Virus record (IMG/VR): IMGVR_UViG_3300025759_000064
Span: 46,920 to 110,919 of that record
Reading direction: 5' to 3' (one strand)
Length of the DNA: 64,000 bases
DNA from: a virus
Made by a program: the position numbers and the translations under genes. Shown here in pieces: positions 3-34,903 of this stretch (positions are counted from its first letter, which is position 1; every line of letters starts with the position of its first letter). The notes beneath the pieces are model-generated. The model was not told the DNA's origin. It ran no database searches and saw only the letters and a list, made by a program, of their open reading frames with translations.

Positions 3-650
3 TCTTGTTGGAATACCTGCTTTTTGTAATCTAATTAGGTCTTCTCTAAAAGGGTCAAATATCTTATGTTCTCCAATTCTACCTTCTCTCCATAATTGAG
101 CGGCCTTGTTATCAAAATATCTATCCGCTTTATTAGCAACTAGAAGAATCATTTTTGGTGCATACTTTTTCCCTTTTCTCCAACTTTTCCAATTTCTATA
201 TCTATAATTTCTTTCTATTATATTATCTACTAAAAATCTAAATCCACCTATTTGGGTTAAAGCATCGTCGCCACCTTTGAAAGCCCTATCATCAAACATA
301 AATATCGCATATTCGCATTGTCTAGCGACCATATCATCTATCCAAAGATTCCAATATCTTTCTTCTCCACCTAAATCAGCAGAGTGAATAACTCTTCTCT
401 CTCCTTCCCAACGCACTCTTTTACGTGTAGGTTTAGGTAAAATATAGCGAGTTATTAATTTGAAATGTTTAGTCCTTTCGTGTTCAGGTATTTCTTCCAT
501 TTCACCGGGCGTAGTCATATATTTGTCTAAAGTAGTTTTACCAACCATAGACGCGCCATATATTCCCACTCTTCTAGATTTCCAATTATTGTAGGCTTGT
601 TTACCGTATAAGGCTACACCCACTAATATACTGCCGCTTGCCGCAACCAT
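3..650 (-). CDS. Arf/Sar/Ras-superfamily small GTPase with hydrophobic N-terminus (3' end runs off the window)
   Basis: Absent from the ORF track because it is truncated. My translation from ATG 650 is MVAASGSILVGVALYGKQAYNNWKSRRVGIYGASMVGKTT...ADLGGEERYWNLW...AIFMFD...ILLVANKAD, which contains G1 (GxxxxGKT), G3 (DxxG) and G4 (NKxD). Confidence 0.85.
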   Translation of the reverse strand, partial: MVAASGSILVGVALYGKQAYNNWKSRRVGIYGASMVGKTTLDKYMTTPGEMEEIPEHERTKHFKLITRYILPKPTRKRVRWEGERRVIHSADLGGEERYWNLWIDDMVARQCEYAIFMFDDRAFKGGDDALTQIGGFRFLVDNIIERNYRYRNWKSWRKGKKYAPKMILLVANKADRYFDNKAAQLWREGRIGEHKIFDPFREDLIRLQKAGIPTR

Positions 651-655
651 ATCAA

Positions 656-943
656 TCAACTAAACTTATTTGTTAACCATGTTCCAAAGTCTGCTACTTT
701 TTGATATACCCATTCAACTGTCATTTCCCATAAGTTCCAATCTGTATTGGCTTCCATTGCAGAAACAGCCATTGCTGCACCGACAGAACATAATATTGTT
801 CTAATCCAACCCAGTCCCCATTCGTAGGTATTATCTACTGTATTTGCTAAATGCATAGCACGCAGTGTTTCTTCAACTGAATCATCACCAACATTGCGAA
901 AAATACGCAATGGAGAAGGAATTAACTGTCCGGGTAGTACCAT
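656..943 (-). CDS. small membrane protein
   Basis: Hydrophobic segment WGLGWIRTILCSVGAAMAVSAM; co-oriented with and directly upstream of the GTPase. Confidence 0.65.
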   Translation of the reverse strand: MVLPGQLIPSPLRIFRNVGDDSVEETLRAMHLANTVDNTYEWGLGWIRTILCSVGAAMAVSAMEANTDWNLWEMTVEWVYQKVADFGTWLTNKFS

Positions 944-1670: not shown

Positions 1671-1741
1671 TCCGAATATTCTAATGTCTTGTATATACAT
1701 AAAGAATAATATGTACTATTGTATAGATAGACAATCGGAAT
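1671..1741. repeat. 71-bp imperfect palindromic element, copy A
   Basis: TCCGAATATTC...GTATATAC...TGTATAGATA...ATCGGAAT; aligns without gaps to the reverse complement of 47988-48058. Confidence 0.6.
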
Positions 1742-2217
1742 CATCGGACAGGCCATATACCTTCAGGTGCATATTTTTGCCACATAGATTGAGCCTCAGG
1801 TGATTGGTCATTATCAGGGGTTAATGTTTGGTCATAATTAGATAACACTTCTGCCATAGTATCATAGAGATTTTTAGCATATCCTCTTTGTCGATAAGGT
1901 TGTTCTGTTCTCGCATTCATAACACTGGTAGTGTTTCTATCGCCTAAAGTTCTAGCATTCATTCTATTCCTATCACTAATATTCCCAGCGATATTTAATC
2001 TAGGTCGTGTTCTTTTCAAAGGTTTACCAAAATAAGTTCCACCGTTTTCTCGCCTTCTAACATCTATGTCTGTTTGTAATATTTCATTAGTAACAGGGTC
2101 TTGAAAATCAGCAGCCCACGTATCGTGTTCGCCTGATGGTTCAGATGTTACTCTTCTTAATGAATCGGGAATCATAGGCGCTTTGAGCACAATCCACGCT
2201 TGGTCGAAGGCGGTCAT
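1741..2217 (-). CDS. leader-tagged GNAT-like acetyltransferase
   Basis: N-terminal MTAFDQAWIVLK; acetyl-CoA motif A-like YRQRGYAKNLY; C-terminal QSPEAQSMW. Confidence 0.7.
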   Translation of the reverse strand: MTAFDQAWIVLKAPMIPDSLRRVTSEPSGEHDTWAADFQDPVTNEILQTDIDVRRRENGGTYFGKPLKRTRPRLNIAGNISDRNRMNARTLGDRNTTSVMNARTEQPYRQRGYAKNLYDTMAEVLSNYDQTLTPDNDQSPEAQSMWQKYAPEGIWPVR

Positions 2218-2432
2218 TGATTATCACTCCACCAAGTATCTACTTCAGGGTCATTCATCAAATCTTCATTAAAATAATAGAAATGCTTCTTGTAACAATC
2301 ATCACATAACATTCTTGGAAAATCAACGCCATCATCAAGTGTATGATTCTGACTGTTTAACAAAGCACCACAATGTGAACAAGCGCCCACTTCTAATTTT
2401 AGCAAAGCCCACGCTTGGTCGAAGGGGTTCAT
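2214..2432 (-). CDS. leader-tagged small Zn-finger protein
   Basis: Likely start MNPFDQAWALLK at 2432 (TGATG overlap with the upstream stop); CxxC...CxxC. Confidence 0.65.
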   Translation of the reverse strand: MNPFDQAWALLKLEVGACSHCGALLNSQNHTLDDGVDFPRMLCDDCYKKHFYYFNEDLMNDPEVDTWWSDNQ

Positions 2433-2791
2433 CAGCAGTTCCACCGTTTGAGCGCTGCGCCCTTCGGTGTTAGTTTTCCACCTTTACTGGTCGGTCCTTT
2501 GCTCCCACCCATTCTAGCACAGAATGACTTTCTTCTGTTTGCCGCTTTACTACCGGGTTTTAGTGAACTTGGTTTTTTAGTAACAGGTCTTTTCAAGTTT
2601 GCACCTGTCTCTCGCTTGAACTTTGCACGCCCTTTTGCATTTAGACCACCACTTCTGCTATGCCTGTTTGGATTGTAACCGTGAAATGGTTTTGATTTCT
2701 TTTTTGCTTTTTCAAACACAGAATCTAACAGTGCTACTGATGCTTGTTGCATAGGTGTGCAACAGTCACATGTGTCAAATCCCATAGTCAC
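2432..2791 (-). CDS. basic conserved phage protein (DUF6321-like)
   Basis: GGLNAKGR...NLKRPV...RRKSFCARMGG...ALKRWNC is a recognisable marine-phage family; Cys-rich N-terminus. Confidence 0.6.
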   Translation of the reverse strand: MTMGFDTCDCCTPMQQASVALLDSVFEKAKKKSKPFHGYNPNRHSRSGGLNAKGRAKFKRETGANLKRPVTKKPSSLKPGSKAANRRKSFCARMGGSKGPTSKGGKLTPKGAALKRWNC

Positions 2792-3096
2792 CGTAACACA
2801 CCCACCATCTTAACAATTGTTGGCTTTCCGCCCACACCTTGCTTTTTTGCACGTTTTCTTTTTGTTGCTGCTTGCTTCTGACCTGATGACATAGAACCTG
2901 ATGTTTTTGGCGTTTTGCTTGAAACCTTGATTGATGGTCTGCATTTAGGATAACCTTTACTAGATTTATTTGCTTTACTTCTACCACACGGAGGATGCTT
3001 ACCATCTTTAGTACGCGACACATCTACCCATTTTTCTTTGAACCAGCGATTTAGGTTCTTAACTACAAGAGTATCATGGCAAGTACATCGTGTCAT
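2788..3096 (-). CDS. basic conserved phage protein
   Basis: LNRWFKEKWVD...PCGR...YPKCRP motif seen in marine phages; overlapping start/stop with both neighbours. Confidence 0.65.
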   Translation of the reverse strand: MTRCTCHDTLVVKNLNRWFKEKWVDVSRTKDGKHPPCGRSKANKSSKGYPKCRPSIKVSSKTPKTSGSMSSGQKQAATKRKRAKKQGVGGKPTIVKMVGVLR

Positions 3097-3254
3097 ACTA
3101 CTCCTACCATTTTCTTAATACTCTTTTGTTTATCCATCAATGCGTAACAAGGACATTTAGGAGCGGATGCTGAACATTGATTACCCTCAATCATACAAAC
3201 GCAAGGCGTTTTACTAGTAGCCCCGCAACAACATTTGTCTTTCTTAAGTTTCAT
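3093..3254 (-). CDS. 53-aa Cys-rich, metallothionein-like peptide
   Basis: My translation: MKLKKDKCCCGATSKTPCVCMIEGNQCSASAPKCPCYALMDKQKSIKKMVGVV; ATGA overlaps at both ends. Confidence 0.6.
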   Translation of the reverse strand: MKLKKDKCCCGATSKTPCVCMIEGNQCSASAPKCPCYALMDKQKSIKKMVGVV

Positions 3255-3421
3255 TTTTTCTTTTTCCCCTTAAACTTACCACGACAATATTGAACAGCCC
3301 ACCCGTTTGCATACGCAGATGGGTAAACATCGAACTTTTTCTTTGCGGCTGCTTTTCCAGCAGGGCATAGTTTTTTCCAAACCGCATCCATACCAACACA
3401 ATGACCGCATTCGCAACTCAT
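3251..3421 (-). CDS. 56-aa basic conserved phage protein
   Basis: My translation: MSCECGHCVGMDAVWKKLCPAGKAAAKKKFDVYPSAYANGWAVQYCRGKFKGKKKK; the KFxVYPSAYAN motif is common in phage small proteins; ATGA overlaps. Confidence 0.65.
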   Translation of the reverse strand: MSCECGHCVGMDAVWKKLCPAGKAAAKKKFDVYPSAYANGWAVQYCRGKFKGKKKK

Positions 3422-4983
3422 TTTTTCACCTTAACCCTGCGAAGTGTACCTTTATTTTTGAAATGCCTTGCTCTATTTGAGTGTGCACTCTCTAAAGTTA
3501 ATTTTCCACCTTGCGTGTGGCTGACATCTTTACCACCTTTTCCGTATATGCCCCGCTTCCTACGCTCTGTGTTTAATTGCTCACGATACTTTACACGCTT
3601 AGGTGTCTTTTGATATTGCTTGTCATACTCTAATTTGTGAGCAAATGCTGCTGGCGACTTGCGCTCTTTGAGCAACTGATAGGCTATGTCCATTGGTTCG
3701 CTGGCTAGTTTCCGATTTTTCCACTCAAAACGGGTAGTATATTCAGGATGGTCTTCGGGAAGCAACGACATTGGAGGACGTTCTTTACTTGGCTCAAGCC
3801 GTCTATATTCATTTTCAAAATGTCGTCTGTTCTCCCTTTTTTGTTTTTCATAATACCTATTGAACTCCTTTATTGAATCCCAATAGTCTTGTTCATTATA
3901 ATCTTTTATATTTCCATATCCGTATAATCTTTCAGAGCCTTCATCTCGCTCGTATGGTTGGATATTGCTGAAATAATCATATAACATATTTTCATCCATA
4001 TCTTCGTCTTCCTGAATATTTTTAAGCAACTGGAGGGCTATGTCCATTGGACTACCTTTAGTCAATTCGTAGATTTCATCTTTAGTTTTACCATAAAATA
4101 AATTATGTAACTCATCTGCATCCATATCTTCTATCTTTTTTCGTTTAATCGGCTTACCCCAAGGTAAAGGTTTGTCGCTCCATCTACTAATTCGGCCACT
4201 TGGCCTTCTGTCTGTATTACTAATATTACGACCTAAATTGGGAGTGCCCATCTCTAGTGTTTCGTCTTTATAATGTCGTCGCAATGGTACTTCAACTAAA
4301 CTTTCACGTGGAATATTTTCATCATGCTCAATAAACGCTTCTGCTAAATCTTCTTTTGCTTCGTCACTATCTCTTCTGTGCACTTTTCCGTATTTATCAA
4401 GATTTCCACGTACATAAACTAACTTATCGGGGGCATTATGGGTGTATAAATTATTAATATCTCCCATTGTATTATTTGAAACCCAAGTTCCAGCCTTTGC
4501 ATTTTTTAATCCAGCGAAAAGTTTTCGCGCGCGGGGATGATACTTACCATCTCTATGCGCACCTGCCATATAATACGGTACATTTGATATAGGGTCTTTC
4601 CTCCATCTCGAATTAGGGTCTTCCCAAACAGGGTCATTATCATGGGGTATTTCAGGAATCAGTGGTGGAAGTCTTGGGTCACCTTCTTCATAGTTTATAT
4701 TAGAGCCATCTTGCGGTACAGGTTCTCCCGCAGGTCTATGCGCCCCTTGTACACGAACAGCCCTAACGGGGTCCCATCCTTCCCAACCAGTTGTGTAATC
4801 TAATCTAGGGTCATGCATTGGCAACTTTGTTTGATAATTATTTTCAATTGTGTACTCCGGGTGATTTGGAAACAATTGCGCTCTTCTCGCTTGTTCCATC
4901 ATATCCATATATTCTTTCGATTCTTTAATAGCCTCTTCATCTTCTAACGATTTTAGAAAAGCCCAAGATTTGTTAAACACCAT
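3418..4983 (-). CDS. leader-tagged multi-module protein (ART-like domain, acidic module, C-terminal HNH-like module)
   Basis: Likely start MVFNKSWAFLK at 4983; internal PMDIALQLLK and PMDIAYQLLK separate the modules; GTWVS...EAFIEHDENIP is ART-like; KDVSH...ESAHSNRARH is HNH-like. Confidence 0.65.
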   Translation of the reverse strand: MVFNKSWAFLKSLEDEEAIKESKEYMDMMEQARRAQLFPNHPEYTIENNYQTKLPMHDPRLDYTTGWEGWDPVRAVRVQGAHRPAGEPVPQDGSNINYEEGDPRLPPLIPEIPHDNDPVWEDPNSRWRKDPISNVPYYMAGAHRDGKYHPRARKLFAGLKNAKAGTWVSNNTMGDINNLYTHNAPDKLVYVRGNLDKYGKVHRRDSDEAKEDLAEAFIEHDENIPRESLVEVPLRRHYKDETLEMGTPNLGRNISNTDRRPSGRISRWSDKPLPWGKPIKRKKIEDMDADELHNLFYGKTKDEIYELTKGSPMDIALQLLKNIQEDEDMDENMLYDYFSNIQPYERDEGSERLYGYGNIKDYNEQDYWDSIKEFNRYYEKQKRENRRHFENEYRRLEPSKERPPMSLLPEDHPEYTTRFEWKNRKLASEPMDIAYQLLKERKSPAAFAHKLEYDKQYQKTPKRVKYREQLNTERRKRGIYGKGGKDVSHTQGGKLTLESAHSNRARHFKNKGTLRRVKVKK

Positions 4984-4984
4984 T

Positions 4985-5203
4985 CTAAATCCATCCTGAT
5001 GTCCTCTTTGATTGTTGTGTCTTAGGTTGTGACGTAGGTTGAGGCGGATTGGCTTGCATATTTCTTTTAGCATCTGCGTTTTTAGCCATTATCATGTCTT
5101 GTAGAGACATAAAGCGACCTGAGCCGGGAGGATATTCGTGCATATCAATGGGGTCTGCTTTGAGAAATTGCCAAGCCTCATTGAATGCGGTCAACCCAAT
5201 CAC
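4985..5203 (-). CDS. leader-tagged small protein
   Basis: LTAFNEAWQFLK leader; tightly packed between its neighbours. Confidence 0.6.
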   Translation of the reverse strand: MIGLTAFNEAWQFLKADPIDMHEYPPGSGRFMSLQDMIMAKNADAKRNMQANPPQPTSQPKTQQSKRTSGWI

Positions 5204-6345
5204 CTATTTGCAAAAACATCTTTTGGCATACGAGGTCTTGGTTTGTTAGGGTCTGCAAATCGTGGGTCACCCGGTCTAGGCGCACCACGTGGTTTTCGCA
5301 TTTCAGGCATACCTTCCGCCATTATTGCAGCCCGTTCCGCTTCATTCATTTCCGCTTGGCGTGCATCTTCATCACCAAACTCAGGTTTACCGTATGGCGG
5401 TCCTAAATCTTCCCCATCATATTCAGGAAAACCTTCATCATCGTATCTACTTGGACCGGGCATACTATCTCTAGTGTAATTATTCGCCCCTTTTCTATGT
5501 AAATCTTCGTCTATAAAACGTTGAGGAGACATATCAGGAAGATTTCGTGCTCTGACGTGTTCGGGTAAATTAGATATTCTAAAGTTTTGCTTCAACATTT
5601 CAAATGCTTTTTGCATAGGTTTACCCCTGCCGGGGATTCGATGTAGCATTTTTGAATTGATAAGTTCTTGTAATTTTGCCTCACTTGCTGCTCTTTTACC
5701 AAGTTTAGTGTTTTTTAACGCTTCTTGCAAAAATGGGGCATAATCATCCTTAAAATCCCGCACCTCTTTATTAGTTGGGTGTGTTTGTTGGTATGAGTAA
5801 GATTGTGGTGCTTTGGTTCTTCTTTGGTTATCTTTGTTAGCATAAGCATTCATTTGGTCCATAGGGTCATCTACACTTCCATATGGCATACTATCGGCGT
5901 AGTACTCAGGGTGCATATCTAACGTTGGGGTTTTACCATCACGGTAATCTAATGCACTTTCATTTGCACGAAGATTCAGATTTGGCAAGTCTGCATTTTC
6001 GTCATTATAACTACCTGATGTCAAATGGGGGTTTTCTTTCATGCGCCTCTGCATCATCCCATATATCGCAGGGTGTATAGTACCCGCACCCTCTTGCCTC
6101 TCTCCGACATCAGGGCCTTCTCCTTGGTAAGTGATTTCTGCTAGATTGGCTCTGTCATAAGCAGGTTCAAACATTTGATGCTCAGGTAGCGCTTTCAAGG
6201 TCTGCCACGATTTCTTCATAGGCATAGAGCCGTATTTCTTCATGTTCGGTGTAGCGGCATCGGTGGGCTTAGTTTTCATTTTTGGCCCAATGCTGATAAT
6301 TACAGCAACGCCCTTTTTCTTTTTCTTGTCTTTCATTTTAATCAC
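5200..6345 (-). CDS. low-complexity multi-module protein with two internal leader-like motifs
   Basis: 381-aa ORF containing MPMKKSWQTLK and PMQKAFEMLK; P/D/E-rich. Confidence 0.65.
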   Translation of the reverse strand: MIKMKDKKKKKGVAVIISIGPKMKTKPTDAATPNMKKYGSMPMKKSWQTLKALPEHQMFEPAYDRANLAEITYQGEGPDVGERQEGAGTIHPAIYGMMQRRMKENPHLTSGSYNDENADLPNLNLRANESALDYRDGKTPTLDMHPEYYADSMPYGSVDDPMDQMNAYANKDNQRRTKAPQSYSYQQTHPTNKEVRDFKDDYAPFLQEALKNTKLGKRAASEAKLQELINSKMLHRIPGRGKPMQKAFEMLKQNFRISNLPEHVRARNLPDMSPQRFIDEDLHRKGANNYTRDSMPGPSRYDDEGFPEYDGEDLGPPYGKPEFGDEDARQAEMNEAERAAIMAEGMPEMRKPRGAPRPGDPRFADPNKPRPRMPKDVFANR

Positions 6346-6347
6346 TT

Positions 6348-6695
6348 TTAATTTTGATATTGTGGATTATTTTGCTGGTACGGTGGCCTTTCATGCTCAA
6401 ATGGGTTTCTTTTAGCCTCAAATGGTTTGGGTTGATGAGGTTGGTAAGGGTTGTAAGGTAGGTTGTTATCATTTGGATTACCTTGTCCGTATGGCGCATT
6501 TTGCTTCATTCTCTCCATGTACTCGTCCAAAGTTCGCTGTTTACCTTCTTTTGATGGAGAGGGGGCGTAAGGGTTAGGTTGAGGATTATTTCGGTAAGGT
6601 TGGTTAGATGGATTGGAAGGCATTGCTCGGTGGTATAAATAATTCGGGTTAGGTGCGCTTTTCAAAAACGTCCACGCTGTTTCAAATGCTGTCAT
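6348..6695 (-). CDS. leader-tagged N/P/Q/Y-rich protein with PIP-box-like motif
   Basis: MTAFETAWTFLK leader; KQRTLDEY. Confidence 0.65.
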   Translation of the reverse strand: MTAFETAWTFLKSAPNPNYLYHRAMPSNPSNQPYRNNPQPNPYAPSPSKEGKQRTLDEYMERMKQNAPYGQGNPNDNNLPYNPYQPHQPKPFEAKRNPFEHERPPYQQNNPQYQN

Positions 6696-6964
6696 TCTCC
6701 TTGACCCCCTCTAAATGACTCAAACCATTCGGGATGGTTCTGTCTGTAAAAATCAATTATTTTAGCATCTTCTTCGTGGTCATCTATTTTTTCACGTAAT
6801 TTTGAAGCCTTTTGCTTCTTTTTACGGCTATCAGACCTTGTTTTACCAGTTTGATTCAGTGCCTCTTCCATGTAACTTGGCATATCGTGCTGCATAGCAA
6901 CTTGAGAGGAGGGGGACATTTTTAGCACATTTATTGCTGCATCTATTGGATTCATTTTATTCAC
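6692..6964 (-). CDS. small protein with degenerate leader
   Basis: MNPIDAAINVLK at the N-terminus. Confidence 0.6.
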   Translation of the reverse strand: MNKMNPIDAAINVLKMSPSSQVAMQHDMPSYMEEALNQTGKTRSDSRKKKQKASKLREKIDDHEEDAKIIDFYRQNHPEWFESFRGGQGE

Positions 6965-7136
6965 CTTTTACGCATCGGCGTGGTAACTACGTGCACCGCT
7001 AGTAATGCGATATGTCTAATATGTTACGCTCTATCCTGAGGGCGTGGTGGCTTCCATTCCGCAGGGTCAAGTTGTTGTAAGTTCTTCTTCTTTCCACATT
7101 CATTACCTCAAAAAAAATAAGCAGACTGGTGGGAAT

Positions 7137-7760
7137 ATGGAAGTCACCGCACCTGTTTTGGTTACTAAAGGCGTAGGAGAAACAGCGCTAAACTTGGGCG
7201 CTCTTGCACTTGCACCATTTACTGGTGGTATGTCGGCAGTTGCCTTAGGAGCAGCAAGAGGCGCACAGGCATTGAGAGCGGTAAAAGCAGCAAAAGGTGC
7301 AAAAACTGCCGTAGGAACTACTCAAGCCGCTAAAACTACTGCTGGTAAAGTTGCAGTTAAAGACCCAATGGCTATGGCAAACGCAAGACATGCAGAGCAA
7401 ATAGCAGAGGCTGGTGAAAGCGGAGGTAGATTAGGTCAATTGCGAAGTAGAGCAGTAACACCAACGGCGGCAGAAGAATTAGAGGCTGCAACTTCAAATC
7501 AAGCAAGAATGAAAGATATAGCAAGCACTACTGATGCAGCAGCAGAAGCGGAAAAAAATCTTGCCGAATTACATGAGCAACAAAAAACTGCAACAGATAC
7601 AGCAGGGGCTGCTGCTGTTGTGGGAGTACAAGGCACAAACGCTGCCGCACAACAAAAACAGGCACAACAAAAAGCCGAAATGGAAAGAATAGAAGGATTA
7701 GCGGAAGATGCTAGGTCAAAAGCCAGCACCGGAACTGGTGGGAAGGTAGCGGTGGCATGA
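7137..7760 (+). CDS. Ala-rich helical protein with hydrophobic glycine-zipper-like N-terminus
   Basis: ATG at 7137; LGALALAPFTGGMSAVALGAA followed by an Ala/Gln-rich coiled coil. Confidence 0.65.
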   Translation: MEVTAPVLVTKGVGETALNLGALALAPFTGGMSAVALGAARGAQALRAVKAAKGAKTAVGTTQAAKTTAGKVAVKDPMAMANARHAEQIAEAGESGGRLGQLRSRAVTPTAAEELEAATSNQARMKDIASTTDAAAEAEKNLAELHEQQKTATDTAGAAAVVGVQGTNAAAQQKQAQQKAEMERIEGLAEDARSKASTGTGGKVAVA

Positions 7761-7853
7761 TTGCCATGGCTCTAAAAGGCTACATTAAACTGCAATTAGC
7801 CCAAATGATACAGCATTTGATTGTCGGCTTAGGACTTGTAGTTGTAGTTACTG

Positions 7854-8702
7854 TTATACTTTTATCTTAGTATTTACAAACTTGACTAGCGGTTCTAAGT
7901 CTTTAAGCGTAACACCACAATCAAGATTCTCTCTATCAGCCCAGTGTACTAACTGTTCTGTGGCTAAATTGCCCCCTGAGCCGGGTACAAACGGGCAACC
8001 GCCCATTCCTCCAATGCTAGAATCGAACTGTGTGATGCCGCAATCGAAGCCAGCAGACAGATTATCGTACATTCTGCCCTCTCTTACACCGTGATGTAGG
8101 TGCAATGCGATATTTGCATCTATCTTTCTGTCAGTTAAACGCATTACTTTGCGTATCATCGATGGGTTAGCATTACCTATGGTGTCAGACAAAACTATTG
8201 TATCGCCTAAGGTATTTGCCCATTCCATGGTTTTTAGCATGTCTTTTGGCGGTATTTCGCCCATAATCGGGCATCCAAAAGATGTAGAAAGGTAAACTCT
8301 GACGTTTTTGGTCGGTATTCTGTCTAATGCGCCACTGTATTCAGCAAAAATTGTGTTTAGGTTTTTACCTAAGTTATTGACATTGAAGTAGTTTGACGGT
8401 GAGAAAAAAATATTATATTTTTCTACACCAACAGACTTTGCCCTTTCAACACCCACACGGTTTGGCACTAACATACCCAAGTTGTGCGTAGAGGCTAAAT
8501 CTTGCACTTTGAGGAATACTACTTCGCTATCAGCCATATTTGGAACTCTGTCAGGATTGACCATTGAGCCAATTTCAATATTTTTGATACCCGTATTTGC
8601 AATTTTACGTATCAAAGTCACCTTATCGTGCGTAGATGTGATTGTATCTGCGCTCTGCAACCCATCGCGTGGTCCTACTTCGTAGATTGAAAAGTCGCTC
8701 AT
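7854..8702 (-). CDS. hmgL: hydroxymethylglutaryl-CoA lyase (DRE-TIM metallolyase)
   Basis: IYEVGPRDGLQ, SFGCP, SDTIG, LHLHH (metal-binding HxH) and GGMGGCPF...GNLATE are all present; likely start at 8702. Confidence 0.9.
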   Translation of the reverse strand: MSDFSIYEVGPRDGLQSADTITSTHDKVTLIRKIANTGIKNIEIGSMVNPDRVPNMADSEVVFLKVQDLASTHNLGMLVPNRVGVERAKSVGVEKYNIFFSPSNYFNVNNLGKNLNTIFAEYSGALDRIPTKNVRVYLSTSFGCPIMGEIPPKDMLKTMEWANTLGDTIVLSDTIGNANPSMIRKVMRLTDRKIDANIALHLHHGVREGRMYDNLSAGFDCGITQFDSSIGGMGGCPFVPGSGGNLATEQLVHWADRENLDCGVTLKDLEPLVKFVNTKIKV

Positions 8703-9361
8703 TATTCTGTCTCCCAATCCCACATATCGGGTCTTTCAGTTTCACCAACACCCCCACCGTAAGCCAAATCTTTAATGTCTCTCGGCACATTGCCCCAAGT
8801 AGATTCATCATGCCAATTCATTGGCTGCCCTACGTTTTTACCCTGTCTCATCATAACTAATCGGTGCGGGTCAATCGCCTCATGGATAAGCCCTTCAGGA
8901 AATCCTTCAGGACTTTGTTTTGCGTTCCTCCACTGCGCATCGAGATTTTTCGCGCCCTCAGGTGTCATACGAATCCCAACCATTGAATGTCCCATTCCTT
9001 TTCCACTAGGCGTAGCACCAGCGTATGCGGGTGTAACATTACGAAAATCGGGTTTAGTCACCCAAAATCCTTTACCCCCACCACGTGTAGTATCAAACTT
9101 TTTGTCATTTTTACCAGCCATTACATCTTCCCATTGCGAATTATCTTCTCCATAACCACGGTTTGCGTTTTGCGGCAAAGGCTGCAAACCTCGATTATCA
9201 ATATCTTGCATATATTCGCTCGGTACAACACGCATCATCGACATCGGCCCAGCCCGACTAGGAAAATCTGCATGGTATTGACCCAAGGTAGTTTGGTCAG
9301 GGTGCAATTCAGGATACAAAGGTGACTTTAGAACAGCCCATGCTTGGTCAAAGGGGTTCAT
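8702..9361 (-). CDS. leader-tagged putative ADP-ribosyltransferase-fold protein
   Basis: MNPFDQAWAVLK leader; R...IDNRGLQP, GFWVT, AYAG, VGIR and EGLIHEAIDP follow the Tpt1/ART-like pattern. Confidence 0.5.
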   Translation of the reverse strand: MNPFDQAWAVLKSPLYPELHPDQTTLGQYHADFPSRAGPMSMMRVVPSEYMQDIDNRGLQPLPQNANRGYGEDNSQWEDVMAGKNDKKFDTTRGGGKGFWVTKPDFRNVTPAYAGATPSGKGMGHSMVGIRMTPEGAKNLDAQWRNAKQSPEGFPEGLIHEAIDPHRLVMMRQGKNVGQPMNWHDESTWGNVPRDIKDLAYGGGVGETERPDMWDWETE

Positions 9362-9729
9362 TGTTGACCCTCCCGATTCGCCCAAAAACCCTCAGCATCC
9401 TCGCTCTGCATGTGATTAGTGTTCTGCACAGTAAGTCCAGTAATTTTCTCAGCGTGGTTGTACATGTCCGTGGCTATACCCCCTCTCCGAAAACTCGGAT
9501 GCGTGTAACTAGCCAAAGGAATCAAGTTACCGTCAGCCACTGAAAACTTTGCATAACCATATTTTATGGGCTTTTGGTCGTATTTATCCAAACCCTGTAT
9601 GGCCGCAACCTGTAAATTACCATGTTTATCGTATTCATGCTGCAACGAGAAATCTTCGGGGTCTCCGTAGTAAGGGAAATCCGGTTTAGGCATTTTGAGT
9701 ACAGCCCACGCTCGGTCGAAGGCAGTCAT
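9358..9729 (-). CDS. leader-tagged GNAT-like acetyltransferase
   Basis: MTAFDRAWAVLK; THPSFRRGGIATDMY; QSEDAEGFW. Confidence 0.75.
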   Translation of the reverse strand: MTAFDRAWAVLKMPKPDFPYYGDPEDFSLQHEYDKHGNLQVAAIQGLDKYDQKPIKYGYAKFSVADGNLIPLASYTHPSFRRGGIATDMYNHAEKITGLTVQNTNHMQSEDAEGFWANREGQQ

Positions 9730-10259
9730 TCATGCACCCCATCATACGGCCAACGTAGTCTTATCCCTCTATAATCATCTTGAAACTTAGTGTGAGCAGA
9801 ACGCCTCTCATCTCCCTCATACGGCAATTCCATGTGTTTTGCCCAAAATGGGGCTGAGGATGCGCTTAACTGACTCGGAAATGTCGTTAGCCTAGCATTT
9901 TTCTTCTTCGCCATCTCATTCGCCAAATTATAAACACCCGTCATCAAACCTCTTCTTCTGTAACCCTCTCTAGTTTTTGCATGAGAAGTTTTCCATTCAG
10001 GGCCATAATGCTCGCTAATATGATTAACAGCAAGCGGTTTTCCATCATTATCCATAATTCTTGTATTTAGCCCATACATATCATATTCCGACACCATTGG
10101 ATAGATTTTGTTTGTTTGAGGGTCTTGAAATTGTGCTTCCATCCCACCGTCTTGTACGTCAGCCTCCTTAATGGGGTCCCACCCTTCTATTTCTTTAATT
10201 GAGCCGGGGATTATCGGCATCTTGAGTATAGCCCACGCAATGTCGAATGCGTTTACCAT
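9726..10259 (-). CDS. leader-tagged GNAT-like acetyltransferase
   Basis: MVNAFDIAWAILK; TREGYRRRGLMTGVY; SASSAPFW. Confidence 0.75.
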   Translation of the reverse strand: MVNAFDIAWAILKMPIIPGSIKEIEGWDPIKEADVQDGGMEAQFQDPQTNKIYPMVSEYDMYGLNTRIMDNDGKPLAVNHISEHYGPEWKTSHAKTREGYRRRGLMTGVYNLANEMAKKKNARLTTFPSQLSASSAPFWAKHMELPYEGDERRSAHTKFQDDYRGIRLRWPYDGVHE

Positions 10260-10303
10260 GCGCCTCACACAGCGTTACTCTATATCGAACTACCGCTAAA
10301 TTA

Positions 10304-10844: not shown

Positions 10845-11615
10845 GTGGAGGAATCTGAAATGGTAAACGATTTGAAAAACGATACCCAAATAACGATGAT
10901 TGAGCGAATTGCTACGCTCTTGCAGTCACTTGTGACTGTAAGCAAAGCAAAAGGTCGAGGTAAGGTCGACATAGGTAGGTGGGATGTATCCAAAGGATAC
11001 CCTGACCCTCTGTATGATGATGAAGCACCTAACACCACATTGACAGCCAAGCAAGCAAGCACTGTACTTGCACGCTTCTGTCAATCTGTGATTGATAGTG
11101 GTTGGAAACCTGCAAGCGAATTGACTGTTAGTCAACATGCACTTGCAGAGACACATACTCTTTCCACAGGAAAGAACAAAGGCAACGAAGTTCCTGTCTT
11201 TGCATACGGCCTGAACAAAGTCCGTGGAAATGCACGTACAGCAATTAGGAAAGCAAAGTTGGCAGCATCACTTGTGACTGCTCAGGAGAATGGTGGTGCA
11301 TGGTTTGCTGTTGGTGTAACCAACAAAGATGGCACAGGTAAGGCGTTCCCAAGTGAGAAGAAAGCGAGAAATGCTTATGCAAACATGACCTATGGTAAGG
11401 ATTGGTACGACCATCCTGACAAAGAGGCTAGGAAAGCGGAGGCATCAATCCACCGTGGCACATACATAGCCTTCGATGAGAATACCATCATCACAAGTGA
11501 CACAGTGTTCACGACTGATGAAGCCTTGATTGCTGCTGCTAAATCATTAGGCAGCAAAGCAAGCACAGCACGCGGTGCTAAGACATTCATGAAGAAGCAC
11601 TTCGCTAAGGCCTGA
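10845..11615 (+). CDS. basic hypothetical protein, first gene of the rightward arm
   Basis: 256-aa ORF (alternative ATG at 10860) between promoter copy 1 and a hairpin/U-tract. Confidence 0.8.
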   Translation: MEESEMVNDLKNDTQITMIERIATLLQSLVTVSKAKGRGKVDIGRWDVSKGYPDPLYDDEAPNTTLTAKQASTVLARFCQSVIDSGWKPASELTVSQHALAETHTLSTGKNKGNEVPVFAYGLNKVRGNARTAIRKAKLAASLVTAQENGGAWFAVGVTNKDGTGKAFPSEKKARNAYANMTYGKDWYDHPDKEARKAEASIHRGTYIAFDENTIITSDTVFTTDEALIAAAKSLGSKASTARGAKTFMKKHFAKA

Positions 11616-23847: not shown

Positions 23848-25092
23848 ATGGGTAGTAAAGATGGATGTCATACAGGTAATCCCCTTGTCTTTGAGGCAAA
23901 GGGTGTCAAAGTATATGCTGGTGGAACAAATAGAAATGGTGGCTGGCACAAGATGTCACCTGTACCTGACTTGGCTCTAGGGCCAATCGGTGTAATACAC
24001 AGTGCAAGAACTATTGATGTATTACCGGAAGGTTGGAAGTCATCGTCTACATTAGTGGGTGGTGATACACCTATTGTAATGGAGATTGATTGGCCTGATT
24101 ACAGTATTCCTAGTAACTTAGGCCCATCGTGGTGGAGAGCATTGGTTGAGGATATCGAGACTAAAAACATCAAATCAATATCTACTCAGTGTATGGGTGG
24201 TCATGGTAGAACTGGTGTACAGTTGGCTATTCTTGCACACTTGATGATACCAAAAGCAAAGCATGAATGGAAGAACGCATACGACCTTATAAAGTGGGTT
24301 CGTGGTAACTTTTGTGAACATGCGGTAGAAGCAAAATCACAGCAAACATACATCGCAGATGTGTGTGGTATACCTGAGGGTGACTCTGCAATTGTAGTCA
24401 CGCAGCCACAATGGAGTAACTTCGATTACACTGCTGATAATCTTCTAACAGAAGATGAGTTGAGAGCAGAGCAAGTAAAGATTGAGAGAGAAGAAAAGAA
24501 AGCAAAGGCTGCTGCTAAGAAAGCGAAGGCTGCTAAGAAAGGTAAGAAAGGTAAGGGCAATAATCCTAAGAAACATACCCTTGAAGATTTCCTTGCTGAT
24601 GATGATGAGCGTGTACCTTTTGGTAGTGATAACAAAGTGAGTTCTCCTATTGAAAAGGGTTGGACTATCGTTGAGTGTTGTGATTGCCACCATAACGAAT
24701 GGCGCAAAGCAGATAGAAATACGTTTACTACACCTTGTAGTTCATGTGGTTTTGACGGAGGCTTTGTACAAGTTGATAGAGAGTTCCTCGATGGTAATAA
24801 GACTAGACTTTGCTTAGTTACTGATGAAATGTATCACCAAATAGAAATGTACGATGAACAAGTTTCATACGTAGGAGAAGCAATACGTAGAGGTATGAGT
24901 GTTAGAAGAAATCACGGAGGTATTGCTACTATTAGAATAGGTAACAAATACATACCTATCCACTTATTAAAAAGAGACGGAGATGACATCGTTTCTATGA
25001 AAAAGACCACACAAAAAATAGTCGAATCCCGTAGTGCCATACAAGGTATGGAGTTTATGGGAAGGCAAGAAAGAGAAATACTGGAGGAATAA
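23848..25092 (+). CDS. Cys-based (PTP/dual-specificity) phosphatase with Lys-rich linker and Zn-ribbon
   Basis: WPD loop (IDWPDYSIP), CX5R motif QCMGGHGRTG, Q-loop AVEAKSQQTYI. Confidence 0.85.
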   Translation: MGSKDGCHTGNPLVFEAKGVKVYAGGTNRNGGWHKMSPVPDLALGPIGVIHSARTIDVLPEGWKSSSTLVGGDTPIVMEIDWPDYSIPSNLGPSWWRALVEDIETKNIKSISTQCMGGHGRTGVQLAILAHLMIPKAKHEWKNAYDLIKWVRGNFCEHAVEAKSQQTYIADVCGIPEGDSAIVVTQPQWSNFDYTADNLLTEDELRAEQVKIEREEKKAKAAAKKAKAAKKGKKGKGNNPKKHTLEDFLADDDERVPFGSDNKVSSPIEKGWTIVECCDCHHNEWRKADRNTFTTPCSSCGFDGGFVQVDREFLDGNKTRLCLVTDEMYHQIEMYDEQVSYVGEAIRRGMSVRRNHGGIATIRIGNKYIPIHLLKRDGDDIVSMKKTTQKIVESRSAIQGMEFMGRQEREILEE

Positions 25093-33644: not shown

Positions 33645-34238
33645 ATGAGTAATATAGCAGTCTGCCAAAAATGCGGTAAAAACTTTAGAAAGAAGAACAA
33701 TAGAACAGTGCGCAGTTATTGCGATGAGTGTAGTACAAATTATACTAAAACGCTAAACAAAAGAAACGTCTACAATAGAAGTAAATCTTCCATTGAAAAA
33801 GAGACCAAAGAAGAGTACAGGATACGTTTACTAGAAGAAGAAATAAAAGAATTAAAATCTGTTTTTGAAAGTATTAGCGATAGCACAAAAAGACAGATTG
33901 CGAAAGAAGTAGGGGTAGCCATTCAAGAAACAATGAAAATAGCCTCAAAAAACCTAGAAGAAGATTTCAATAATCATAAACTTCTTGTCGAGAGCGTAGT
34001 ATCAGATGAGTTCAAAAAACAAAACACAAAGTTTCAGAATCAATTAGCCATATTGAATACGCGAATGAAAAAGTTAGATGAAAGTTTTACAGATTTAGAT
34101 ACAAAGATGGCGGAACATTTACATTATTACACCACTAAACTAAGTTTACATAAGAACCGTAAAGGCGGTAGAGTACAAAAGAATCGAACTATTACTGGTA
34201 AAAAGAGGGATGAAGTTGAAAAGGGGGATGAGATATGA
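33645..34238 (+). CDS. Zn-finger plus coiled-coil protein
   Basis: CQKCG...YCDEC, then a long coiled coil. Confidence 0.7.
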   Translation: MSNIAVCQKCGKNFRKKNNRTVRSYCDECSTNYTKTLNKRNVYNRSKSSIEKETKEEYRIRLLEEEIKELKSVFESISDSTKRQIAKEVGVAIQETMKIASKNLEEDFNNHKLLVESVVSDEFKKQNTKFQNQLAILNTRMKKLDESFTDLDTKMAEHLHYYTTKLSLHKNRKGGRVQKNRTITGKKRDEVEKGDEI

Positions 34239-34903
34239 CAATACATGACGCATGGGCGTTACTCAAGGAGGAAGTCAGATTGAGAGGCTCTACTGGGGCT
34301 GCATTGCGCATTTTACCTAGTGGTAAAAAAGTGGTAGTAAAAAGAGGCGGTCACGCTGGAGGTAACCCTCAGGCTCACATTAACAACGAGTATGACATGA
34401 ATCGTTATCTGAATGAATTAGGTGTTGGTGTTCCTAATGCTCGAATGGTAGAAGAAAGAAGTAGACCTACTATGCTTACTGATTATGAAGAAGGGGCTAG
34501 ACCTGTGAATTATGGAGACAAGCAAAAATTAAGACAAGACTTCGTTCCACAGGCGCTCATAGCCAATTGGGATGTTCTAGGTATGGATATGGATAATGTT
34601 CTGATGAGGCCCGATGGCAACCTTACCTACGTAGACGTAGGAGGGGCTGGACCGTATAGAGCGCAAGGTGCGCCTAAAGGAAATGCTTGGGGTTCTAGGG
34701 TATCTGAATTACAATCAATGCAATATAAGCCACCACATACAGAAGAAGTATATGGGGGAATAACCCCTCAAGAACTAGGTCAGTCTTACGATAAATATGG
34801 CGGTAGCGATGCGATGGAGGCTGCTCTATCCTCGCTTAGAAACAGTCAGACAAGAAACGTACTACAACAAAGAATAGGCGATATAGCAAGACAAGTTGCA
34901 TAA
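34235..34903 (+). CDS. leader-tagged PI3/4-kinase/HipA-like kinase-fold protein
   Basis: MTIHDAWALLK leader; GSTGA, VVK, NE, GVGVP, ANWDVLG...DN and VDVGG...YRAQG resemble the kinase-like domain of phage head-associated polyvalent proteins. Confidence 0.65.
   Translation: MTIHDAWALLKEEVRLRGSTGAALRILPSGKKVVVKRGGHAGGNPQAHINNEYDMNRYLNELGVGVPNARMVEERSRPTMLTDYEEGARPVNYGDKQKLRQDFVPQALIANWDVLGMDMDNVLMRPDGNLTYVDVGGAGPYRAQGAPKGNAWGSRVSELQSMQYKPPHTEEVYGGITPQELGQSYDKYGGSDAMEAALSSLRNSQTRNVLQQRIGDIARQVA

Follow-up and report, generated by a model that had tools for sequence, protein, structure and literature searches.

A 64,000-nucleotide stretch of viral DNA (hereafter the window; bases 46,920-110,919 of one 110,919-bp viral contig, IMG/VR record IMGVR_UViG_3300025759_000064) holds an array in which one helix of 12 residues, M-x-[AP]-F-[DE]-x-A-W-x-h-L-K (hereafter the tag), stands at the start of about a dozen unrelated late genes. 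The tag is real, selected as a peptide, carried by unrelated proteins, and specific to the viruses concerned and to the late strand that bears their head genes. We regard the existence of a portable, virus-specific, late-gene peptide tag as established. As for its function, the sequence evidence leans moderately towards a portable capsid-targeting signal whose LK would be the cleavage site of the prohead protease. A preliminary description of this DNA had already interpreted the array as a system for loading host-modifying enzymes into the head, and that interpretation is partly supported.

The tag is conserved as a peptide

Nine leaders had been quoted when the array was first noticed, and all nine were found on the minus strand where they had been placed. 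A strict regular expression, [FI][DNE].[AS]W..LK, gave 8 matches, all at the N-termini of ORFs within 1741-10268, against 0.02 in shuffled sequences. A position-specific scoring matrix (PSSM) applied to the whole 110,919-bp genome gave 16 matches of at least 12 bits, against 0.3 in shuffles. Fifteen of these 16 lie on the late (minus) strand between 42.7 and 57.2 kb of the genome, just upstream of, and co-oriented with, the terminase, portal, protease and capsid genes, and the remaining copy is at window position 34235 on the plus strand. Beyond the leaders first listed, copies were found within a 551-aa ORF (window 3667-3693 and 4021-4047), in a 381-aa ORF (5590-5616), twice in a 631-aa ORF upstream of the window (L123:5762-7657, minus strand), and at the N-terminus of the ORF at 34235 (+).

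The consensus is [TNS]-[AP]-F-[DE]-x-A-W-x-[LIVF]-L-K, followed by a weak preference for small residues and commonly by a Pro 2-3 residues on. Copies located inside larger, charged proteins or 2-8 residues from C-termini take the form [GS][ED]P-M-[DE]-[IL]-A-[FW]-x-L-L-K. The view of the tag as a leader is too narrow: internal and C-terminal copies identify it as a position-independent module, and fit docking better than simple removal of a leader. In an AF2 model of the tagged protein W10 (see below), the tag forms a helix at residues 4-13, ahead of a low-confidence linker. The helix is amphipathic, with F, A/W and L making up its hydrophobic face.

Pairwise identity of the leaders at codon positions 1, 2 and 3 was 0.65, 0.78 and 0.46, respectively. 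Third positions are far less alike, which indicates that selection acts on the peptide. The likeness of the leaders at DNA level, noted in the preliminary description, does include common stretches, the longest of about 15 nt, but it follows from conservation of the peptide. With synonymous sites varying and shared runs of this length, the proposal that leader DNA serves as a recombination handle found no support.

The tag is carried by unrelated proteins

When the 11 tagged proteins of the window (W1 to W11, described below) were stripped of the leader and compared by BLASTP, only W1 and W10 were clearly similar (E 6e-4), W10 and W9 being marginally so (E 0.08), in agreement with the earlier remark that sequences diverge after LK. 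At an estimated 30 bits or so, the tag is too poor in information for a profile search of billions of sequences, and degenerate DNA patterns were used instead. The one that encodes M-x-x-F-[DE]-x-A-W-x-x-L-K retrieved at least 120 stretches from IMG/VR, many of them with 2-5 matches. At least 235 unique, complete, N-terminally tagged proteins from all loci retrieved fell into at least 129 BLAST clusters by their post-tag sequence, which ranged in length from 26 to 651 aa. The tag is thus portable, as had been proposed, and stands ahead of many non-homologous C-terminal parts. Pfam searches with these tagged proteins identified a NUDIX hydrolase, DUF6321, GP88, zinc ribbons and an HTH domain, most proteins having no match at all.

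These data bear on the notion that the tag is the first helix of one paralogous family or common fold, or else a nucleic-acid signal (promoter, translation start or recombination site). In its favor, the tag helix directly precedes the sheet in the GNAT-like family, and stretches of up to about 15 nt of DNA are common to copies in this genome. Against it stand the at least 129 unrelated clusters, which include NUDIX proteins, Zn ribbons, DUF6321 and low-complexity peptides, the BLASTP comparison, the variable third codon positions (0.46 identity), the in-frame internal and C-terminal copies, and a second virus lineage (see below) with another peptide tag in the same genomic role. The notion is most improbable and already largely refuted.

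The tag belongs to the late strand of magroviruses

The genome (110,919 bp) encodes a family B DNA polymerase (PolB), an SNF2 helicase and a thermosome-type chaperonin (Cpn60_TCP1). Thermosome and SNF2 together are the signature of group A magroviruses (Philosof et al. 2017; PMC5434244). Size (ca. 100 kb), a halovirus-like capsid/portal/protease/terminase module, PolB, the thermosome subunit and SNF2 all agree with this group, and on sequence grounds the virus is assigned to group A magroviruses; the INPHARED phage collection contained no close magrovirus. The late tailed-virus module is encoded on the minus strand within the first 57 kb and comprises terminase, portal, a 1,820-aa protein, protease-scaffold, capsid and tail genes. 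The major capsid protein is an HK97-fold protein of 389 aa (SU10_MCP, phrog_24667) with 32-34% identity to those of haloviruses HVTV-1 and HCTV. An HK97-family prohead protease, in keeping with the preliminary description, is present in the form of a 459-aa protein in which a Peptidase_S78 (HK97-type) domain is fused to a scaffold (PF04586, E 2.8e-9; head maturation protease PHROGs down to E 5e-14). In its alignment H67 and S125 are invariant and the C-terminal tail is conserved, as befits a Peptidase_S78-plus-scaffold protein; the protein relatives listed for the protease are close ones only.

Proximity of the tags to head genes, which the preliminary description had named as a sign of support, was borne out. 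In 19 large genomes, the coding pattern A-W-x-x-L-K had 126 matches on the strand of the protease gene and 9 on the opposite one, while a reversed-pattern control gave 12 in total. In capsid-centred loci, all 61 tagged ORFs were downstream of the capsid gene on the same strand, 44 of them at a distance of 1-2 kb. Genomes carried 3-12 strict matches each, and more when degenerate copies were counted. Among the matches listed, a homologue of the protease-scaffold (36-88% identity) was found in 19 of 20 tag-bearing contigs longer than 80 kb.

A slightly stricter pattern searched against 596 Gb of prokaryote genomes yielded only 30 matches, all single. Ten of these were an internal CPPCRxEMPAFEAAWQELKD of one Chloroflexota/Dehalococcoidia/SAR202 protein (L210-L233), which we take to be thioredoxin-like; it matches by chance, and pattern searches must allow for it. 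The others were chance-like too, save one on a Poseidoniales single-cell contig that itself carries a capsid gene. That only chance-level matches occur in prokaryote genomes indicates that the tag is viral and not a host signal. The single-cell assembly in question, AG-422-I20 (L225 / L239), contains a 106-kb magrovirus-like contig with a capsid gene 65% identical to the one studied here and one tagged gene; its presence there provides a direct virus-host link that agrees with the proposed host, Poseidoniales.

The set of tagged genes, or cargo, turns over fast. A tagged 'ALPEQQLF' gene, the one found 1-2 kb from the capsid gene in the loci above, forms a 422-bp cassette in a relative (L125:12850-13271) and is absent here (genome 23,195-23,202), although the capsid protein of that relative is 100% identical and the flanks of the cassette are 94% identical to this genome. 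Presence and absence between such flanks indicate cassette-like gain or loss.

The tag as a candidate capsid-targeting signal

According to the mechanism proposed, tagged proteins would dock late in infection inside the assembling prohead, the likely docking site being the one occupied by the protease-scaffold through its conserved C-terminal tail, though another scaffold or capsid surface is possible. The Peptidase_S78 prohead protease would cut after the invariant Lys (..h-L-K/x; the slash marks the bond cut or predicted to be cut). This would free N-terminally tagged cargo from its anchor, split multi-tag proteins into modules and trim about 34 residues off the capsid protein at ..E-L-L-K/A-D. 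The freed proteins would remain in the head and accompany the DNA into the next Poseidoniales (Marine Group II) cell. Prohead docking, LK cleavage, presence in the virion and injection are steps that we infer from the evidence assembled below.

A docking site is suggested by a second magrovirus lineage (L240-L319), which was reached from a distant protease-scaffold representative (P0134). Its late genes bear a different tag, M-[STN]-W-x-x-[IV]-[LI]-K, with 145 N-terminal matches (116 unique), all on the protease strand, and the lineage showed no A-W-x-x-L-K at all. The scaffold tail of this lineage, ..A-K-M-D-W-[SN]-[DE]-I-[NH].., resembles the lineage's own tag, a likeness suggesting that tags are mimics of the tail and bind the shell where it binds. 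In the lineage of the window the scaffold tail is likewise conserved (..P-S-T-E-D-L-A-x-M-S-W-D-E-V-H-x-L-A..). Co-folding of the capsid protein with the protease-scaffold and residues 1-40 of a tagged protein, each with its own alignment, gave a score of 0.00 and is evidence neither way.

An alternative that we consider unlikely is that the tag docks on another hub, be it the viral group II chaperonin, of which tagged proteins would be clients, a late assembly factor or a host protein, with LK acting as an uncut binding surface. Like short linear binding motifs, the tag is not tied to one position and occurs at either terminus or internally; its F-x-x-x-W-x-x-L spacing is that of a generic groove-binding helix; chaperonin genes were found in 18 of 19 large tag-bearing genomes of one lineage and in 5 of 5 of the other; and the one tagged gene in the replication arm lies near the chaperonin module. 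The placement of the other tags tells against such a hub, as they are nearly confined to the head-gene strand (126 versus 9) and to capsid-adjacent sites, whereas the magrovirus chaperonin gene belongs to the replicative cluster (PMC5434244). Many tagged proteins are tiny, of low complexity or of zinc-ribbon type and would not be expected to need a chaperonin, and the invariant terminal h-L-K matches a conserved island of the capsid protein. Nor is a host signal being copied, since the cellular genes of Poseidoniales lack the motif. Finally, we know of no sequence-specific chaperonin tag that could serve as a precedent.

The other part of the capsid-targeting reading concerns cleavage. When loci were collected independently of the pattern and scored with a PSSM lacking its last two positions, P1 was K in 17 of 17 tags and P2 was L in 16 of 17. 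The preliminary description had suggested looking for LK/[ASM] in the capsid protein, and LK/A was found there at residue 34 (..GSELLK/ADSP). The capsid N-terminus is wholly conserved within this lineage and therefore uninformative on the cut site. In the second lineage, with 36-40% capsid identity, [LIVM]LK stands out as a conserved island between a variable Gly/Asn-rich stretch on one side and a length-variable segment on the other. The capsid protein of halovirus HVTV-1 reads ..MSK/ADN at the equivalent position and its protease/scaffold junction reads ..VVSK/ADG, the magrovirus counterparts being LLK/AD and ILK/ED, so that P2 changes in parallel at both sites. Cleavage after Lys by this type of protease, cited from the outset, is documented: the HK97 capsid protein is cut at K103/S104 (PMC10275583), and that of phage phi12 is cut after R128, with K or R at P1 according to its authors (PMC8569155). 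A test for depletion of h-L-K within the cargo, with 28 observed against 24 expected and a control set that is redundant and dominated by head genes, allows no interpretation.

Cleavage might also be the whole purpose, the tag being chiefly a recognition element by which the protease matures polyproteins or zymogens, in the cytoplasm or in the prohead, without any targeting role. Internal copies would split the 551-, 381- and 631-aa proteins into modules, K is invariant in the tag, and HK97-family proteases cut after K or R. For more than 100 unrelated small proteins, however, loss of a 12-residue helix has no evident activating role, and C-terminal copies leave merely 2-8 residues to be removed. 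The strongest conservation (F, A and W) lies 4-8 residues upstream of the scissile bond, exceeding what the S78 enzymes of HK97 and phi12 appear to need. All in all, this explanation appears quite improbable.

Several observations weigh against the capsid-targeting reading itself. In this lineage the likeness between tag and scaffold tail is loose, A-W-x-h-L-K and S-W-D-E-V-H sharing only small-W-x-x-h-basic. One tagged gene (window 34235) is located in the replication arm. Co-occurrence was dropped as a criterion for the receptor, as protease-scaffold (19/20) and chaperonin (18/19 and 5/5) are both near-universal; with the chaperonin accompanying tag-bearing genomes, co-occurrence cannot single out head proteins. 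P1' is weakly constrained after the tag (A 20%, M 13%, G 12%, S 12%). Conservation is high over residues 1-34 of the capsid protein in the lineage, which is unexpected for a discarded propeptide. An 'ILK' near the N-terminus of the protease and an 'F-x-I-L-K' at the protease/scaffold junction were dropped as evidence of cleavage because distant Peptidase_S78 homologues share them; such family-wide LK elements may belong to the fold and are not independent evidence. Lastly, a cut at those tags that lie 2-8 residues from the C-terminus would not release cargo.

Tagged proteins of the window

The array proper spans ten tagged genes on the minus strand. The best-characterized product is W10 (9726-10259, 177 aa; tag MVNAFDIAWAILK at 10221-10259), whose AF2 model (pLDDT 83.5) had only GNATs as top Foldseek hits in the PDB (E 6e-4). 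TM-scores of 0.35-0.43 mark it as a divergent member; the family conserves an RRRGY.T..YD motif, and its profile matches in the PDB were weak (E 0.07). W1 (1741-2217, 158 aa; tag MTAFDQAWIVLK at 2182-2217) is GNAT-like, being a homologue of W10 (E 6e-4) with an aligned RRRGY..YD motif. W9 (9358-9729, 123 aa; tag MTAFDRAWAVLK at 9694-9729) is weakly so, with an Acetyltransf_7/1 Pfam match at E about 0.005. The GNAT fold attributed to three proteins from the outset is therefore retained for W10, W1 and W9, which are predicted acetyltransferases.

W8 (8702-9361, 219 aa; tag MNPFDQAWAVLK at 9326-9361) is a lead only as an ADP-ribosyltransferase-like protein. Its ESM Atlas neighbors are PARP, Tox-ART-HYD1, exotoxin A and Arr, at 0.85-0.87 and so below the 0.9 mark. 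Relatives of W8 carry YHGTT, which W8 itself does not, and its AF2 model (pLDDT 48.5) was insufficient for a fold search. Sequence and profile searches of the PDB were blank for W8 and for a 'MPYHGT' family member, W8 had no Pfam match, and its protein relatives amounted to two near-identical matches. Of the ART-like calls made initially, this is the one that stands, at that level. Phosphorylation had likewise been listed among the cargo activities, but no kinase was found.

W2 (2214-2432, 72 aa; tag MNPFDQAWALLK at 2397-2432) has the CxxC...CxxC of a zinc ribbon, and the zinc-finger call made earlier has this motif in its favor together with Zn_ribbon/LIM Pfam matches that reach an E of about 0.02 only. 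Next to it, at 2432-2791 (minus strand), lies a basic DUF6321 protein (PF19846, E 1e-16) in which the tag is degenerate; its relatives (L035, L052 and L002) have an intact tag directly before AKKKSKPFHG (..AWxLLK/AKKKSKPFHG). Three small untagged ORFs rich in Cys and Lys (102, 53 and 56 aa) follow beside the DUF6321 gene on the same strand (window 2788-3421).

W3 (3418-4983, 521 aa) is a charged, low-complexity protein with an N-terminal tag, MVFNKSWAFLK, at 4951-4983 and the internal copies PMDIALQLLK (4021-4047) and PMDIAYQLLK (3667-3693); its start at 4983 is one base after the stop of W4 (4985-5194), a 69-aa tagged peptide with a TTG start and the tag (L)TAFNEAWQFLK at 5159-5194. W5 (5200-6345, 381 aa) contains MKKSWQTLK/ALPEHQMF at 6193-6219, which is N-terminal if translation starts at 6219 and internal otherwise, and a further copy, PMQKAFEMLK, at 5590-5616. 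It belongs to a 'tag-ALPEQQMF' family found in relatives about 1.7 kb downstream of the capsid gene, and an RNA-library contig spans its region (5186-6425). W6 (6348-6695, 115 aa; tag MTAFETAWTFLK at 6660-6695) is rich in Pro, Asn and Gln. In W7 (6692-6955, 87 aa) the tag MNPIDAAINVLK (6920-6955) is weaker, with I replacing W, and scores 16.4 bits. An untagged member of the HMG-CoA lyase family (HMGL-like, PF00682, E 7.8e-27) is embedded in the array at 7854-8723 on the minus strand. W11 (34235-34903, plus strand, 222 aa; MTIHDAWALLK, 18.1 bits) is the sole tagged gene off the late strand and matched no Pfam family.

In RNA libraries, contigs from two studies match parts of the array with an identity of at least 99%; they may stem from carry-over DNA and are no proof of transcription, and nothing follows from the parts that they leave uncovered. 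The greatest depth in these contigs (48.6 and 7.2) was found just past the array, at a 256-aa ORF on the plus strand (window 10845-11615).

Neighboring genes

Between the array and the head genes lie a 241-aa small GTPase with GASMVGKTT, DLGGE and NKAD motifs (window 3-659, minus strand, continuing to L123:10853-11578) and, preceding it, two membrane or Trp-rich proteins (656-943 and 955-1620). A variable protein of 1,820 aa is encoded between the portal and protease genes (L122:9511-14973, minus strand; genome 27,511-32,973). Its conserved C-terminal region weakly matches the adenylation domain of ATP-dependent DNA ligases (E 0.0038), and the protein is possibly a large component of the head interior. 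Two ORFs encode the terminase large subunit, one its N-terminal ATPase (L123:1195-2676) and the other its C-terminal nuclease (L122:19195-19968), with LAGLIDADG-type endonuclease ORFs between and after the two halves (L123:3-1106 and L122:17964-19106, both on the minus strand). Beyond the tail genes, an ORF of more than 5,068 aa (L121:2-15205, minus strand) runs off the start of the contig, a position from which it may encode a giant tail or fibre protein. In the plus strand of the window, a 414-aa ORF at 23848-25092 shows a weak match to protein-tyrosine phosphatases (E 0.0022).

Comparison with known systems and significance

Short, transferable peptides that dock cargo on the inner face of an HK97-fold shell are known from encapsulins (cargo-loading peptides) and from the HK97 protease (its C-terminal targeting tail). 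They are C-terminal, are not removed and serve one or few cargo types each; the docking principle would be the same as that proposed for the tag, with no sequence similarity. The scaffolding proteins of P22, phi29 and 80alpha bind coat protein through C-terminal helices. Comparable to these, the second-lineage tag M-S-W-x-[DE]-I-L-K is similar to the scaffold tail K-M-D-W-x-[DE]-I-[NH], which suggests competition for the same site on the capsid protein. In the genome studied here the likeness is loose, and binding is proposed from sequence.

The nearest analogue is the T4 capsid targeting sequence (CTS) of IPI-III and Alt, and of the IP genes, which are polymorphic among T-even phages. It consists of N-terminal propeptides of 10-19 residues that direct unrelated internal proteins, including the ADP-ribosyltransferase Alt, to the prohead core, where the prohead protease removes them; the protease has a site of its own near its N-terminus, and T4 relatives carry different CTS-bearing proteins (PMC9026906). 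Similarly, the magrovirus tag is a short N-terminal peptide (about 12 residues) on unrelated proteins, enzymes included; its last residue would be the P1 of a prohead-protease consensus, with cleavage predicted; the protease and the major capsid protein carry similar candidate sites; and the cargo set varies between close relatives. Among the marks of T4-type CTSs as a class, one short terminal peptide on several unrelated proteins of one virus is observed here. Differences lie in the protease, as gp21 of T4 cuts after L/I-x-E whereas an HK97-type Peptidase_S78 presumably cuts after K, and in the motif, the archaeal host, the far larger number of cargo families (at least 129, with 3-12 tagged genes per genome) and the additional internal and C-terminal positions of the tag. 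Homology to T4 components (gp21, IP proteins) was not found, no tagged protein matching the T4 internal-protein families of Pfam, and the system is best described as an analogue of that of T4, not a member by descent.

Publications on jumbo phages SPN3US and phiKZ and on the Dar proteins of P1 describe head-internal proteins that are loaded at prohead assembly and processed by the protease at a short consensus site (PMC5694885, PMC7411985, PMC9024508). The ejection, inner-body and Dar proteins resemble the system proposed here in that many head-internal proteins would be loaded and processed. Jumbo-phage propeptides vary in length and sequence and share only a small cleavage motif; the magrovirus tag differs in that a whole helix of 10-12 residues is conserved. 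The magrovirus papers searched made no mention of the motif, and broader literature searches returned no such system in archaeal viruses.

A more general proposal can be built on these comparisons, which we hold as possible though somewhat doubtful. Tags would constitute a system of address labels in which a helix of 8-12 residues mimicking the scaffold tail docks hundreds of unrelated, fast-changing proteins in the prohead, from which they would be released at h-L-K/ and injected as an arsenal for host takeover or counter-defence, the tag dialects of the lineages co-varying with the scaffold. If true, the cargo so addressed would include acetyltransferases, NUDIX hydrolases, possible ADP-ribosyltransferases and DNA-binding peptides, and archaeal viruses would have their first cargo-addressing code, more diverse than any known from tailed viruses. 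The tag may also serve as a compact label for loading foreign proteins into HK97-fold shells.

Magroviruses infect Poseidoniales (Marine Group II), which are among the most abundant archaea of the surface ocean, and are themselves among the most abundant archaeal viruses there, most magrovirus genes having no known function; to our knowledge, no magrovirus is in culture. If the capsid-targeting reading is true for these viruses, the principle of the T4 capsid targeting sequence would extend to archaeal viruses and to HK97-type proteases. A sequence rule would then place about one in ten of their genes in a head-loaded and probably host-delivered class, offer a handle that can be tested without culturing, and point to the fastest-evolving front of the conflict between magroviruses and their hosts.

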